A stretch of 47,478 bases of DNA, taken from a candidate division WWE3 bacterium GW2011_GWB1_41_6 (GTDB lineage: Bacteria; Patescibacteriota; WWE3; UBA101185; UBA10185). Both the position numbers and the translations under genes were made by a program. Below are positions 3,791 to 31,694 of this stretch, piece after piece. The notes beneath the pieces are model-generated. The model worked only from the letters and a program-made list of their open reading frames with translations. It was not told the origin of the DNA and did not search any database. Location of the stretch: positions 1-47,478 of the forward strand of contig LCBS01000004.1 in NCBI GenBank assembly GCA_000997355.1. Direction: 5' to 3'. How positions within the stretch are numbered: the first letter of the stretch is position 1; each line of letters starts with the position of its first letter.

Positions 3791-3828
3791 CCCCTGTTAT
3801 TTCTTATATAACAGGGGTAACATTTTTT
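3791..3828. terminator. bidirectional hairpin terminator between convergent genes
   Basis: Perfect 10-bp stem cccctgttat (3791-3800) / ataacagggg (3808-3817) with a 7-nt loop. An A-tract lies upstream and TTTTTT downstream, so it can serve both the MFS gene (+) and 3827..4183 (-). Confidence 0.65.
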
Positions 3829-4183
3829 ACCATTTCTTTAGCTTGTTACCAGGAATCCACCAAAACACTGCAGGAAGTAACTTTCTGGAAAACCATATCC
3901 ACACTTTCAAATGTAGAGGTGTGAATTTTTTGTAAGCGAGTTCTCCGTGAAACATAGTCGTAGCACAGCCAAGTTTATTTGGGTTTAACCTACCCTTTGT
4001 TGCAGCGATCTTCATAGCCTCACCTGTCATTTTAGTGCCGCCCCAACCCCCGCCACAGTGGCGGACACATCCGCCGGGAGGGCAACCCAATCGTACTTTT
4101 CTTCTGTTATGTTTGGGTCCGTGCCAAACCTCTACTATTTGTACTGGTTTTTTGCTCACTGTTTTCTCTCCTTTGGTTAACAA
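3827..4183 (-). CDS. hypothetical Cys/Gly/Trp-rich basic protein
   Basis: 118-aa ORF containing LGCPPGGCVRHCGGGWGG and a Trp-rich C-terminus (VWIWFSRKLLPAVFWWIPGNKLKKW). It ends at the bidirectional terminator. No family recognised. Confidence 0.55.
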   Translation of the reverse strand: MLTKGEKTVSKKPVQIVEVWHGPKHNRRKVRLGCPPGGCVRHCGGGWGGTKMTGEAMKIAATKGRLNPNKLGCATTMFHGELAYKKFTPLHLKVWIWFSRKLLPAVFWWIPGNKLKKW

Positions 4184-4270
4184 TAGTTAATTTATTGATA
4201 TAACTATATGTATAACAATAGAGTTATTCTAGCTTGGAGCTGCCACAAATAAAAGAAGTTTAGAAAACCA

Positions 4271-4299
4271 TTGACGAGTTTCATTTGTAAGTTAATACT
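4271..4299 (+). promoter_or_regulatory. candidate sigma70-type promoter (orphan)
   Basis: TTGACG (4271-4276), 17-nt spacer, AATACT (4294-4299). No plus-strand ORF follows, only a terminator about 60 nt downstream. Confidence 0.25.
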
Positions 4300-4381
4300 T
4301 ACCTTAGTGTCCAATTATAAATGTCTAAAAATCAATAGACTATATCGTTTTTTATCGTAACCGCTACCAAGCGGTTTTTTT
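4300..4381 (+). ncRNA. candidate small RNA (~75-85 nt) between the orphan promoter and the orphan terminator
   Basis: It is bounded by the promoter-like element at 4271-4299 and the terminator at 4359-4381. The longest plus-strand ORF I found by eye between 4184 and 4360 is 14 codons. Its 5-prime end (cttaccttagtgtccaatt, 4298-4316) matches the 3-prime end of repeat copy B (5109-5127) at 17 of 19 positions. Confidence 0.25.
4359..4381 (+). terminator. orphan Rho-independent terminator
   Basis: Stem aaccgct (4359-4365) / agcggtt (4370-4376), ACCA loop, then a run of 7 T (4375-4381) and a second T-run at 4386-4392. No annotated plus-strand gene lies upstream. Confidence 0.6.
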
Positions 4382-4730
4382 ACGCTTTTTTTGGATACTT
4401 GATGAAGATAAGGACAATAGTATTAATTAACCTGAGGCTGGGTTCCCACCTTGTTAACGGAGAAGTTGATTATGCAGTACTACATTATTTGCATAGTTTA
4501 CTTCTCCGTGTCCTTTTATCAAAAGATATTTCATTTGAATATATTTTTCAGAGACTTGATGTAATAAAGTTGTATAAAAAGGGCAAAGCTAGGACGGGCT
4601 GTATTTGATAGATGGGAAGAATGAAAGCTTTCGCAGTCAGACTGGGTTCCCGTTTCTCATTTACATTCCACGATCCTAGCTTCTAATCCCTCTTTTCTTC
4701 TTATCCTTCTGGTCATCGTAAATTAGGGCC

Positions 4731-4800
4731 AAGGGTTTAGCAACTTTCGCCGCTAGTGGGGATTGTAGGGCAGTTAAGCTCTAGTTTTCCTTTACCTTAG
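4731..4800. repeat. non-coding repeat, copy A (70 nt)
   Basis: aagggtttagcaactttcgccgctagtggggattgtagggcagttaagctctagttttcctttaccttag. It differs from copy B by 3 substitutions and one 1-nt indel. Stop codons occur in all six frames across the unit. Confidence 0.85.
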
Positions 4801-4874
4801 ATCCTAAGATTCATTGGATTTGACTCCGCTGAAGTAGCTTTGAGTTACCTCTTAGCTATCTACGATTTTTGCTT

Positions 4875-4902
4875 ACTATCCTTTGCAGGTGTCACAAACT
4901 GA
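4875..4902. repeat. diverged partial copy of the repeat leader segment
   Basis: actatcctttgcaggtgtcacaaactga aligns with actatcctccaggtgtaacaactga (5021-5045), the sequence immediately 5-prime of copy B. A weaker match, ttatccttctggtcat, precedes copy A (4701-4716). Confidence 0.6.
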
Positions 4903-5049
4903 CTTCGCCGTTAAGCTAGGTCCGGATTTGGTTCTTCCAACGGATGGCCTGACGGTCATTCGCTTCAGTTTACCGACGAAAACTATGAATTTCTTCAATG
5001 CTTTCGATGCCTTTTTGTAAACTATCCTCCAGGTGTAACAACTGATCTT

Positions 5050-5118
5050 AAGGGTGTAGCAACTTTCGCTGCTAGTGGGGATCGTAGGGCAGTTAAGCTC
5101 TAGTTTCCTTTACCTTAG
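5050..5118. repeat. non-coding repeat, copy B (69 nt)
   Basis: aagggtgtagcaactttcgctgctagtggggatcgtagggcagttaagctctagtttcctttaccttag. It lies 319 nt downstream of copy A in direct orientation. Confidence 0.85.
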
Positions 5119-5459
5119 TGTTCAATTCCAAAGATTACCGTCGGCAACCGAAGTCGCTTTTGGCTCCCTGGGAGTGTCATTGAGTTTCCTCGCAGACTCT
5201 GTTACGTATTCTGTTGTCAAGAGAGACGTGGAGGTAAATATACTCGGTAATGAATTAATGTCAAGCTTTTACATATTTTATGTTATCGGATTTTATAATT
5301 ATACTGTGGTTGAAACTATATTAGGCGGTATCAGACTAAAAGATCTTTTATTAAAATACAATATTTGCACAAAATAATAGTTCAATTTTTATTTTTTGCT
5401 AATAAAATGTTTGAGTTTAACTGTTTCTTTTAACAAATTACAACCAAGCCTATAGCTCC

Positions 5460-5488
5460 TTGCAAAGTTTTGACATGTCTGCTATACT
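5460..5488 (+). promoter_or_regulatory. candidate sigma70-type promoter for the DEAD-box helicase gene
   Basis: TTGCAA (5460-5465), 17-nt spacer, TATACT (5483-5488). This would give a ~140-nt AT-rich leader before the start at 5632. Confidence 0.35.
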
Positions 5489-5631
5489 AACTCGTTAAAA
5501 GATAGCGCTATAAATCTGCTTGATATTAGTTTGTACGTTTAGCACAGATAAAAGATATCCAGAATTTCATTATAAATGTATCTTTTCACTAGCCTACTAC
5601 AATTTTAGGCAGTTTTATTGCGCTATTAAAT

Positions 5632-6846
5632 ATGTATATGAGAAACAGATATCAAAGAGGGGAACGAAGATCCAATTTTTCAAGATTCCCCAATAAAAAT
5701 AAGAATAACGCACAATACGCATGGTCTGAAAAAGACCTGGTAAAGTCTATCGAATACTCTAAAAAAAACCGCCGTTTTGAGCCTGAAACCAACTATACAC
5801 CAGTGAGTTGTTTTGACGATCTCCCAATAAACAGACAACTAAAAATAAATATTAAGAACAAAGGTTTTAAAACTGCAACTCCTATACAAGACCAGGCAAT
5901 ACCTCATATTCTAGAGGGAAAAGACTTGATCGGAATTGCGAACACTGGAACAGGTAAAACTGCTGCGTTCTTGATACCTTTATTAGATAAAACCTCAAAA
6001 GACCGCAACCAAAAAGTATTAATTGTTGCTCCTACCAGAGAACTTGCTGAACAAATTAGTAATGACATGAAAGCACTGTCTCAAAATATGCATATATACT
6101 CTGCACTGATAATCGGAGGGACAAGTATGTTCAAACAGATCCATGATCTGAAACGCGACCCGGAAATCGTTATAGGCACACCCGGAAGGTTAAAAGACCT
6201 TGTTAATAAGAAAATCCTTGACCTGTCACAATACAATAATGTAGTTCTTGATGAAACCGACAGAATGGTTGATATCGGCTTTGTAAACGAAATAAAATTC
6301 TTTATCTCCTTGCTTCCCAAACAAAGACAGTCATTGTTCTTCTCAGCCACTGTTTCAAAGAAAGTCCAGGACATATTGGCAGCCTTCGTTCACGATCCGA
6401 TAACAGTAAGTGTGAAGAAACATGATACCTGTGCAAATATCTACCAGGATATAGTACGCGTCTCAAAAAACCAACGAAAGGTTGACACATTGATCCAGCT
6501 TTTGACGCAAAAAGAGTTCAATAAAGTGATAGTTTTTGGAAATACCAAATGGGGAATCCAAAAGTTAACTGACGAACTTATACACAACGGTCTTAGAGCA
6601 GATGCTATTCACGGCGATAAAAGACAAAACCAAAGACAGTCTATACTTCAAAAGTTCAAGAGAAGTGAGATTAGTGTTCTCTTGGCAACAGATGTTGCTG
6701 CAAGAGGACTTGATATCAGCGATGTAAGCCACGTTATCAATTACGAACTTCCAATGTCCTACAATGACTACGTTCACAGAATCGGAAGAACCGGCAGGGC
6801 AGACAAGAACGGCATCGCTTTAACATTCGTAAGTGACTTCAATTAA
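5632..6846 (+). CDS. DEAD-box ATP-dependent RNA helicase (motif II variant DETD)
   Basis: Q motif TATPIQ, motif I ANTGTGKT, Ia PTRELA, II DETD, III SAT, V ARGLD, VI HRIGRTGR. It has a basic N-terminal extension. The start could also be the ATG at 5638. Confidence 0.93.
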   Translation: MYMRNRYQRGERRSNFSRFPNKNKNNAQYAWSEKDLVKSIEYSKKNRRFEPETNYTPVSCFDDLPINRQLKINIKNKGFKTATPIQDQAIPHILEGKDLIGIANTGTGKTAAFLIPLLDKTSKDRNQKVLIVAPTRELAEQISNDMKALSQNMHIYSALIIGGTSMFKQIHDLKRDPEIVIGTPGRLKDLVNKKILDLSQYNNVVLDETDRMVDIGFVNEIKFFISLLPKQRQSLFFSATVSKKVQDILAAFVHDPITVSVKKHDTCANIYQDIVRVSKNQRKVDTLIQLLTQKEFNKVIVFGNTKWGIQKLTDELIHNGLRADAIHGDKRQNQRQSILQKFKRSEISVLLATDVAARGLDISDVSHVINYELPMSYNDYVHRIGRTGRADKNGIALTFVSDFN

Positions 6847-30548: not shown

Positions 30549-31694
30549 ATGCCCGCAGTGAAAAGAAAGACAATACTTCTAACATTAATCACACTTATGA
30601 TCATTCCGGCCGTTTTTTGGTCGGTATATGGATCATTCTTCAGCGCTAAGAACGATATCCCAAATATAAGTTCTGCCAACCCTGTTACAAGTTCTTCAAG
30701 CGAAAATCTCATTAACACCGGATCAAGCTCAGCGGAACCTTTAACTATGCAACTCCCAAATAACTATCTTATAAATAACATCAAACATACATATCAAACT
30801 TTCAATAATTGCGGCCCTGCAGGATTATCTATGCTTTTAAGTTATTATGGTATCAACGAGCCTCAAAACACCATAGCCGTTGAAATACGCCCATACCAAC
30901 ACCCACAAGGAGATAATGACGACAAATCTGTATCATTTGAAGAATTTGCAACATATATTAAAAGGTTCAGTCTCGAATCGATACACAGACCAAGTGGGGA
31001 TATTGATCTTCTTAAAACCTTCATAGCCAACGATGTACCGGTTTTGGTAAGGGCGTGGCTTAACCCAAATGACGATATTGGGCATTTCAGGCTGATCCGT
31101 GGTTATGATGAAAGCAAACGGGTTGTGATACAGGACGATTCCTACCACGGTTCTAAACTATCTTTAACTTATATCGAATTTTTATCAATGTGGGAACCAT
31201 TCGGTTTTGAGTATTTTGTGATTTTCCCCGAAAAAGACCGGGAGAAGATTGAATCTATTATCGGAAGTGACATGGACATTAATAACGCCTGGAACGAACT
31301 TGCAGCAAGGTCGGAAAAGGGCATGGCAGCCAATCCCAATAACCCATACCATGGGTTTAACCTTTCCGTTGCAAGCTACCATCTAGGCAACTACCAAAAA
31401 ACCGTAGAATCCTTTGAGTCGGTCGAAAGCAAACTACCCAGGAGAATGCTTTGGTACCAGATTGAACCGATCCTTGGATATCAAAAGACGGGACAATATA
31501 ACAAAGCTCTAGCGAAAATAGAGAATATCTTAAACAACGGTAACAGAGCGTTTTCCGAATTGTACCTGGTAAGAGGCGAGATCTACCTTGAACAGGGAAA
31601 TACAGCGGGTGCACGAAACGAGTTCGAAAAAGCAGTGCTTTACAATAAATACTATATACCGGCAAAAACAGCCTTGGATGACCTGGACAGGTAA
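30549..31694 (+). CDS. C39-like cysteine peptidase domain protein with C-terminal TPR repeats
   Basis: N-terminal TM anchor, catalytic-Cys context QTFNNCGPAGLSMLLSYYG, a His candidate in DDIGHFRLIRGYD, and TPR-like repeats at the C-terminus. Confidence 0.75.
   Translation: MPAVKRKTILLTLITLMIIPAVFWSVYGSFFSAKNDIPNISSANPVTSSSSENLINTGSSSAEPLTMQLPNNYLINNIKHTYQTFNNCGPAGLSMLLSYYGINEPQNTIAVEIRPYQHPQGDNDDKSVSFEEFATYIKRFSLESIHRPSGDIDLLKTFIANDVPVLVRAWLNPNDDIGHFRLIRGYDESKRVVIQDDSYHGSKLSLTYIEFLSMWEPFGFEYFVIFPEKDREKIESIIGSDMDINNAWNELAARSEKGMAANPNNPYHGFNLSVASYHLGNYQKTVESFESVESKLPRRMLWYQIEPILGYQKTGQYNKALAKIENILNNGNRAFSELYLVRGEIYLEQGNTAGARNEFEKAVLYNKYYIPAKTALDDLDR

Follow-up and report, generated by a model that had tools for sequence, protein, structure and literature searches.

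The island at positions 4184–5631 of a 47,478-nucleotide (nt) stretch of DNA from a candidate division WWE3 bacterium (GW2011_GWB1_41_6; contig LCBS01000004.1, positions 1–47,478; hereafter, the window) lies between an open reading frame (ORF) for a 118-aa protein on the minus strand (3827–4183) and a gene for a DEAD-box helicase on the plus strand (5632–6846). The centre of this island is quite probably a free-standing gene for a previously undescribed structured non-coding RNA, encoded on the minus strand and designated here the large RNA. Together with a small partner RNA transcribed towards it from the plus strand, the large RNA is, judged by sequence comparison, conserved in a few related uncultivated groundwater bacteria. 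An earlier note on this DNA had offered three candidates for the island, namely a large structured non-coding RNA with repeated subdomains, a cluster of small RNAs, and decayed miniature mobile elements; the first is now backed by comparative data, and the other two are taken up below.

Proposed strand, ends, and structure of the large RNA

Homologues of the large RNA occur in three further lineages: L028 (with L027, L030, and L031), L029, and L032 (with L033 and L034). The L-numbers denote the loci compared, which are metagenome contigs, same-species strains, and sister species. These RNAs are ~60% identical to the window RNA and 85–90% identical to each other. The structure was predicted with RNAalifold on a five-sequence alignment, with the 3′ partners slid by 1–3 columns as the control. 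The consensus fold comprises 136 base pairs, 22 of which show changes on both sides (0–6 in the slid controls), and 94.1% of the cells are paired (33–45% in the slid controls); none of 500 shuffles matched the observed paired cells, double-change pairs, or covariation score. Compensatory changes are found in the 5′ hairpin (4 pairs), in both GAAA-capped hairpins of the repeated modules described below, and also in the central domain (7 pairs), the long-range helix around module 2, and the 3′ domain (5 pairs). Strain-level variation was also inspected. Two of the four single-nucleotide polymorphisms in the 5′ domain keep the pairing (G·U to A–U and C–G to U·G), and the changes at 4750, 4766, and 4768–4769 in strains L018 and L013 keep or improve the minus-strand pairing, while breaking that of the plus strand. 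A covariance model of the 3′ domain (R1) scored 108–139 bits on the RNA strand in every lineage, with exactly one copy per locus, and had no match in the sister-species loci or the other candidate-phyla-radiation loci searched.

The minus strand is assigned on the basis of a conserved promoter and terminator, the folding scores against shuffled sequences, and the tetraloops. The promoter of the large RNA is the best sigma-70-type match of the region (11/12 positions), and all four lineages share TTGACA, a 16-nt spacer of free sequence, and a TAnnAT −10 hexamer; the orthologous promoters were picked up independently by the promoter scan in L028 and L032. Just downstream of the −10 hexamer, the block (C/U)UCCACGUCU is found in all four lineages, and at the 3′ end all lineages have a long stem followed by ACCC/GCCC and a U-run. 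The minus-strand fold of 4570–5232 stands apart from its dinucleotide shuffles (z = −4.66 with 20 shuffles and −3.39 with 40), whereas that of the plus strand does not (z = −0.63 and −0.80); for two coding regions of the same length, used as controls, z lay between −0.34 and +0.87. In local 150-nt fold windows the RNA body is not singled out, and only the full-length and domain-level folds stand out; thermodynamics alone is therefore weak evidence, and we relied on the comparative evidence. The earlier note had described two direct copies of a 70-nt unit (4731–4800 and 5050–5118), which indeed differ by three substitutions and one indel (94.3% identity), and had read them on the plus strand. 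The informative strand of the centre is instead the minus strand, on which the unit hairpins carry GAAA tetraloops: each unit reads UAGC(A/G)GC-GAAA-GUUGCUA, and the difference between the copies is one of A–U versus G·U, where the plus strand would have an A·C mismatch. All five conserved tetraloops belong to the GNRA or UNCG classes on the minus strand only, and two of them swap between lineages within these classes (UUCG to GCGA, and GAAA to GCAA).

The predicted parts of the large RNA, in 5′ to 3′ order, are as follows.

5259–5264, minus strand: −35 hexamer TTGACA of the large-RNA promoter, invariant in all four lineages
5237–5242, minus strand: −10 hexamer TATATT (TAATAT or TAGTAT in the homologues)
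4576–5233, minus strand: the large structured non-coding RNA, 658 nt, its putative ends placed by the promoter and the U-run
5224–5232, minus strand: 5′ block UCCACGUCU, identical in all lineages
5128–5172, minus strand: 5′ hairpin with a UUCG cap (GCGA in the homologues), helices 3–5
5047–5118, minus strand: junction module 1 (copy B of the earlier note), with a closing helix UAAGG/CCUUA, a variable arm, and an invariant GAAA-capped hairpin (5057–5074)
5019–5042, minus strand: block X1, GUUGUUACACC(N3)AGGAUAGUU, 20 of 23 positions identical in all lineages
4923–5010, minus strand: central domain of two hairpin domains, one of them GAAA-capped, helices 10–12
4872–4899, minus strand: block X2, GUGAC(A/G)CC..AAGGAUA, a conserved, diverged copy of X1
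4860–4866 with 4715–4721, minus strand: long-range helix around module 2, AUCGUAG/UUACGAU, helix 15
4729–4800, minus strand: junction module 2 (copy A of the earlier note), with a GAAA-capped hairpin (4738–4755), helix 19
4700–4714, minus strand: block X3, GACC.GA(A/C)GGAUAA, conserved, after which a purine-rich tract runs to ~4680
4576–4695, minus strand: 3′ domain with an 11-bp long-range stem, AAGCUAGGAUC/GUCCUAGCUU, ending in GCCCUUUUU
4580–4576, minus strand: U-run at the 3′ end of the large RNA
L028:2835–3579, L029:2835–3580, and L032:2835–3580: homologous large RNAs, to which those of L027, L030, L031, L033, and L034 are added

In the model, the 5′ block UCCACGUCU is predicted to pair with GGAGGAU of block X1, forming helix 2, which never varies. 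The GAAA-capped hairpin of module 1 (helix 9) shows one compensatory change from C–G to U–A and one change from G·U to G–C, and all seven pairs of helix 15 are fully (100%) paired, with one compensatory change from U–A to A–U. The long-range stem of the 3′ domain encloses GGGAACCCAG (4642–4651) and a GCGAAAGC hairpin; the compensatory pairs of this domain fall in helices 20–24, and its loop is GAAA in three lineages and GCAA in L032. The motif that the earlier note had called a leader (4875–4902, 5021–5045, and 4701–4716) is real, and corresponds in the homologues of other organisms to the minus-strand GUUGUUACACC..AGGAUAGUU and AAGGAUA blocks. The motif gttaagct(c)tagg reported at 4908–4918 is present in the window and restricted to it. 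Among the same-species strains, the purine-rich minus-strand tract at 4687–4723 carries 11 substitutions, 10 of which are transitions, in L015, L018, and L013; its sequence thus varies with the purine richness retained. The tetranucleotides CTAG and AGCT are 7-fold and 4-fold commoner, respectively, in 4576–5233 than in the whole window; the homologous RNAs show no such enrichment of CTAG.

The 70-nt repeat is a multi-helix junction module that is present twice per RNA in every lineage. The hairpin tagggc-agttaa-gctcta noted earlier for the first copy (4766–4783) recurs in the second (5085–5102), and a search for further copies found no third one in the 47-kb window (0 expected by chance). Within one RNA the two modules resemble each other at 92% (window) or 69–75% (other RNAs), against ~50% between lineages, and their edges remain position-specific. 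Such likeness within a lineage is the apparent signature of gene conversion, or concerted evolution, and suggests that both modules must stay equivalent. In the other lineages each module has an extra arm, which accounts for the greater length of their RNAs (~745 nt).

Several properties of the island as a whole that the earlier note had pointed out are confirmed. The island has short ORFs only, the longest being 100 aa (5075–5377, plus strand) and 69 aa (4399–4608, plus strand), none of which is credible, and none of its six frames has a Pfam match; conservation at the level of nucleotides or RNA rather than protein had thus been correctly recognized. The centre is richer in GC (0.43–0.47 over 4600–5200) than the flanks (0.27–0.335). 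The 1.45 kb do not, however, make up a single feature as had been supposed, since 5446–5631 is a separate element, in which the helicase gene has its conserved promoter and 5′ leader.

Homologues, distribution, and genomic context

The homologues were reached through a protein search. The translation of the open minus-strand stretch 4879–5109 was compared with a representative library of 1.84 billion proteins, and gave one meaningful match, a 51-aa ORF (58% identity over 38 residues) that sits on the homologous RNA of contig L027. There, the homologue of the window minus strand lies downstream of two acetyltransferase genes, and the similarity begins at the TTGACA promoter. The alignment of the window and L027 pseudo-proteins, used as a degenerate DNA probe on a metagenome collection, returned seven loci. 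The family was therefore found only because a spurious ORF on a homologue matched the translated RNA, and this route may uncover other rare RNAs. Direct nucleotide searches returned nothing: BLASTN of the RNA against plasmids, phages, and E. coli genomes had no match, the large RNA had no match in phage records, IMG/VR, or plasmid collections, an exact 20-mer scan was empty in a collection of genome contigs that holds no close relatives and so says nothing on copy number, and a gapped 22-base pattern was empty in metagenome contigs and IMG/VR. This pattern does match loci known to carry the unit; the homologues differ in that arm, the species of the window is missing from the collections, and the empty pattern scans likewise carry no information on copy number.

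No known RNA family accounts for the large RNA. Rfam 15, whose families include OLE, GOLLD, ROOL, HEARO, raiA, and riboswitches, gave 0 matches in the whole window at gathering thresholds, only noise in 4100–5700 at E ≤ 10 (at most 20 bits, far below thresholds), and nothing at E ≤ 1 for the RNA in the four homologous loci, consistent with the earlier failure to recognize ribonuclease P RNA, transfer-messenger RNA (tmRNA), signal recognition particle RNA, 6S RNA, a group I or II intron, or a riboswitch. ARAGORN found no transfer RNA (tRNA) or tmRNA in the window, and no tRNA in L006, L028, L029, L031, or L032.

The named relatives of the helicase are from candidate division WWE3 and Levybacteria (57–63% identity), and the species of the window is also represented in many aquifer assemblies and in NCBI GCA_000997495.1. 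Across same-species strains the island is 98–99.7% identical. In the nearest other species, the 118-aa protein is 70–72% and the helicase 77% identical, with only ~263 nt between the two divergent genes. Synteny traced through the 118-aa protein is limited to the same species and this one island-less sister species, and relatives of the helicase have the gene for BipA or for the 118-aa protein directly beside that of the helicase, with no island, so that tracing synteny through the helicase yielded the helicase leader alone. Going by the loci compared, the island is a presence/absence difference between sister species, and distant lineages carry the cassette at other loci. The lack of conservation in related genomes, which the earlier note would have taken as refutation, is therefore misleading: the nearest relative does lack the island, and the RNA is conserved in distant lineages at other sites.

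The neighbours across these loci include the DEAD-box helicase, the orphan 118-aa protein, GNAT acetyltransferases, the C39-like peptidase, an amino-acid kinase, a response regulator, and proteins without an assignment. Only the C39-like peptidase/TPR gene is shared; it occupies 30750–31688 (plus strand) of the window and encodes a protein 48–51% identical to that of a gene ~1.5 kb upstream of the RNA in L028, L029, and L032. Because it lies 25 kb from the RNA in the window, the cassette or its surroundings have been rearranged. The varying context and the presence/absence pattern make horizontal movement possible. The assemblies of L012, L013, L014, L018, and L019 break, or carry an N-gap, inside the island at 4605–4916, a pattern that points to heterogeneity among strains or to difficulties created by the repeats. 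For this species, the NCBI assembly stops at window position 4641, so that most of the RNA is absent from that contig.

The proposed plus-strand small RNA unit

Downstream of the large RNA, and directed towards it, lies a second, putative transcription unit with the following features.

4271–4299, plus strand: small-RNA promoter, TTGACG, 17 nt, AATACT, with a variable spacer
4306–4383, plus strand: small RNA of ~80 nt (putative start), with a variable 5′ part and a conserved hairpin, GUCUA..UAGAC (4323–4340)
4359–4381, plus strand: intrinsic terminator T1, AACCGCUACCAAGCGGUU and then a U-run, the hairpin identical in all lineages
4436–4447, no strand assigned: 12-nt block GGCTGGGTTCCC, an invariant core in all four lineages amid diverged sequence
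4457–4509, plus strand: long terminator-like hairpin T2 with a U-rich tail, inverted repeat I1

Every full-length locus retains the small RNA gene together with T1, the 12-nt block, and T2. The unit at 4306–4383 has its own promoter and Rho-independent terminator, independent of the flanking genes, as is characteristic of a trans-encoded small RNA gene; the orthologous promoter TTGACT-17-AATACT was picked up independently in L028 and L032, as was the terminator, and in L028 the upstream protein gene has a separate terminator of its own. The proposal of a small RNA cluster is thus true in part, in that one separate small RNA gene with a conserved promoter and terminator lies at ~4271–4383. The local fold of T2 is strong on the plus strand (z = −9.4). 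The hairpin is kept in L028, L029, and L032, where U8 or UAUUUUUU follows on the plus strand, and its consensus fold is lower in energy on the plus strand than on the minus strand (−16.8 versus −10.9 kcal/mol), with G·U on the former where the latter has A·C.

The repeat ctgggttccc, reported earlier at 4438–4447 and 4642–4651, is real, and both copies are kept in all full-length homologues. The first copy lies in the 12-nt block (GGCTGGGTTCCC/GGCUGGGUUCCC), whose plus-strand sequence is complementary to GGGAACCCAGUC in the 3′ domain of the large RNA. Both strings are invariant, and the pairing is hence a prediction free of any covariation signal. A further complementarity connects the 5′ end of the window small RNA (4300–4316, plus strand) with the 5′ edge of module 1 (5105–5133, minus strand; duplex of −24.1 kcal/mol, z = −5.2 against shuffles). 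The repeat cttaccttagtgt(c/t)caatt described earlier at 4298–4316 and 5109–5127 is real in the window (20/23 nt) and is not conserved elsewhere. Pairing of the small-RNA 5′ end with the large RNA as a general mechanism was rejected, being absent in the other lineages.

Two deletion alleles, L030 (L030:1191–1400) and L031 (L031:3560–3800), lack 221 and 192 nt, respectively, in comparison with L028:3560–3990. The two deletions have the same left breakpoint inside T2 and different right breakpoints; the shared breakpoint may reflect recombination at the hairpin or an assembly artefact. Both remove the whole plus-strand unit and spare the large RNA, which therefore appears as the constrained core of the cassette, with the small unit as an accessory. 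A type I toxin–antitoxin system was considered and rejected: there is no conserved small ORF, and the two transcription units are predicted not to overlap, their terminators facing each other ~55 nt apart.

Possible functions and alternative explanations

We are inclined to regard the large RNA as the founding member of a new class of large (0.66–0.75 kb) ornate RNAs in a few candidate-phyla-radiation lineages, characterized by GAAA-capped modules evolving in concert, a portable cassette of ~1 kb, and a convergent small-RNA unit with a 12-nt antisense match. Such an RNA might form the core of a ribonucleoprotein, assemble with itself, or be a ribozyme. In the mechanism that we propose, the large RNA would act in trans as an architectural, scaffold, or assembly RNA, in which the two equivalent modules, through their GAAA tetraloops, and the three AAGGAUA blocks would constitute paired docking sites. 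The docking partner would be a protein, possibly a dimer, bound twice; alternatively, the tetraloops might mediate RNA contacts of a tertiary or quaternary kind, such as those of other large ornate RNAs (PMC12286853). If transcription ran past T1, the extended transcript would contain an antisense segment that could base-pair with the 3′ domain and might so affect how this domain folds or how stable it is. We nevertheless consider every specific mode of action, including this one, doubtful.

Three groups of known RNAs invite comparison. OLE RNA (RF01071) has ~600–750 nt and many conserved helices and is thought to form a ribonucleoprotein core (PMC12265935, PMC9723947); it is associated with oap genes and found in Bacillota (PMC7936274, PMC12054373). 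The window RNA resembles it in size and in having many helices interspersed with invariant single-stranded blocks, but has no sequence or structure match to OLE, belongs to candidate-phyla-radiation bacteria, and has its own promoter and no constant neighbouring gene. We know of no counterpart in OLE of the duplicated internal module and the convergent small RNA. ROOL and GOLLD form RNA-only homo-oligomers, as seen by cryo-EM (PMC12286853). Like the window RNA, they are large ornate bacterial RNAs with free-standing genes and a patchy distribution, and the symmetric docking via repeated elements proposed here for the window RNA would be of the same type; its oligomerization is pure conjecture, drawn by analogy. 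ROOL and GOLLD are typically located near tRNA genes and in prophages, whereas the window RNA loci have no tRNA, phage, IMG/VR, or plasmid match, and no Rfam model matches the RNA. With CsrB and RsmZ, the window RNA shares repeated, similar GGA-rich modules in a free-standing non-coding RNA; it differs in its much lower GGA density, in its long-range covarying structure, and in having three-way or four-way junction modules in place of simple GGA hairpins. Neither Rfam 15 nor the searchable literature contains a description of such an RNA, which is thus new by family, and by concept joins the short list of large bacterial RNAs.

A Csr/Rsm-type sponge, whose GGA-containing purine blocks (AAGGYAAAGGAAA twice and AAGGAUA three times) would titrate a small RNA-binding protein, is an improbable explanation. 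It would account for the excess of GGA (17–21 per RNA versus 11–12 expected, ~1.6-fold in all lineages, reached by at most 3 of 300 shuffles per lineage), for the recurrence and conservation of AAGGAUA and AAGGYAAAGGAA, and for modular repeats that evolve in concert. The density is, however, only ~2.7 GGA per 100 nt, compared with ~6 per 100 nt in CsrB; several of the GGA blocks are predicted to be paired (helices 1, 2, and 7), long-range structure and covariation far exceed those of known sponges, and no CsrA-like gene is found near any copy, as far as the gene neighbourhoods extend. That the large RNA is catalytic, processing itself or acting on another substrate, would fit its size and its dense conserved structure, together with the invariant single-stranded blocks and the several GNRA loops, all typical of large ribozymes. 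No catalytic core was recognized, however; the RNA has no match to an Rfam ribozyme or intron even at E ≤ 10, and it has its own promoter and terminator instead of an insertion site within a gene, and we consider catalysis unlikely.

A remnant of a mobile or horizontally acquired element, such as a miniature inverted-repeat transposable element (MITE) or a satellite, with decayed repeats lacking a cellular function, is very unlikely, and the third candidate of the earlier note is not supported. The island is indeed missing at the syntenic site of the nearest relative, the neighbourhoods differ among lineages, assemblies often break inside the island, and deletion alleles exist; but each lineage has, on the contigs available, a single copy per contig, no further copy turned up in the 47-kb window, and comparison with the empty L009 and L005 sites shows no target-site duplication. 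Terminal inverted repeats were not convincing, the only end-proximal inverted pair (I9) being 13 nt long, AT-rich, 85% complementary, and located outside the conserved module, and the promoter, the terminators, and the 22 compensatory pairs held at 60% identity point to purifying selection on the RNA, and not to decay. A long structured 5′ leader of the 118-aa gene, which is on the same strand with no strong minus-strand terminator between 4576 and 4183, is still less probable. In the sister species a homologue of the 118-aa protein (70% identical) is present and the island is not; the gene that follows is convergent in L028, and those that follow in L029 and L032 are unrelated; a conserved stem and U-run close the RNA; and the convergent small RNA gene is interposed between the large RNA and the 118-aa gene. 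Since the homologues lie in unrelated gene neighbourhoods, with downstream genes that differ or are convergent across the four lineages, the RNA is not the leader of any gene, and a cis-regulatory leader or riboswitch was rejected. Hardly any weight is given to the idea that a protein-coding gene containing an internal repeat has decayed here. A minus-strand frame does stay open over 77 codons, and its translation resembles the 51-aa metagenome ORF; yet that ORF lies on a homologous RNA, a 1-nt deletion in L032 disrupts the only ORF that L028 and L029 have in common, for which the window lacks a start codon, the six frames are devoid of Pfam matches, and the three other library matches are unrelated repeat proteins. 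The two copies of the 70-nt unit are mutually out of frame (spacing, 318 and 319 nt), and the strain substitutions in module 2 change a residue in the single frame checked by hand, yet preserve pairing. Protein coding was accordingly rejected.

Several observations weigh against a free-standing, functional RNA on the minus strand, or against the mechanism proposed for it. Only four lineages are available, three of which are 85–90% alike, and the covariation statistics therefore lean largely on one deep split; moreover, the pairs were counted on the same alignment that yielded the predicted structure. As for the strand, the strand-neutral wobble count is uninformative (20 G·U versus 15 A·C in helices common to the predictions for both strands), and the RNAalifold energy is lower on the plus strand (−118 versus −91 kcal/mol) because that strand is rich in U and G. 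We infer the ends of the large RNA, and even its expression, from the sequence. The region ~4236–5430 is without a counterpart at the syntenic site of the nearest relative (L005, L008, and L009). The deletion alleles drop the small RNA and the 12-nt block with the large RNA intact, and that part is thus dispensable; a pairing comparable to that of the window small-RNA 5′ end with the large RNA was not found in the three other lineages. Finally, no protein partner was identified, and no tetraloop receptor was recognized.

To our knowledge, bacterial non-coding RNAs longer than ~500 nt with complex conserved structures are very few (ribosomal RNAs, group II introns, OLE, GOLLD, ROOL, and a handful more), and each of them has proved either to be a catalyst or to build unusual assemblies. 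The genomes of candidate-phyla-radiation bacteria are tiny and tightly packed, and the RNA biology of these organisms is largely unexplored. That genomes so dense retain a conserved, ~1-kb non-coding cassette equipped with promoters of its own implies strong selection. The modules that evolve in concert and the conserved antisense block offer handles for structure determination and partner identification.

On the helicase side of the island, strains L016 and L017 differ in the AT-rich spacer upstream of the large-RNA promoter (5250–5465), which is ~10% diverged (23 substitutions), while the adjacent large RNA (4823–5249) and both promoter hexamers are unchanged. The helicase promoter, TTGCAA-17-TATACT (5460–5488), and a 5′ leader of ~140 nt occupy 5446–5631 on the plus strand. 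Nucleotide identity of the leader is 74–82% in loci whose helicase proteins are only 67–77% identical, and a long-range stem of AUCUGCUU with AGGCAGUU is predicted, with six double-change pairs in four sequences. This leader is a candidate cis-regulatory element, as modeled, and has no Rfam match. The left end of the island was also considered as a duplicate of the helicase leader, and this was rejected, as the alignment score fell within those of shuffled sequences. On the opposite side, the minus-strand gene at 3827–4183 encodes an orphan protein of 110–118 aa with a Cys/Gly-rich motif, CPPGGCVRHCGGGWGGT, that belongs to no Pfam family and, in a set of 5.8 billion proteins, falls into only three clusters, one from this species, one from a sister species, and one consisting of a fragment.

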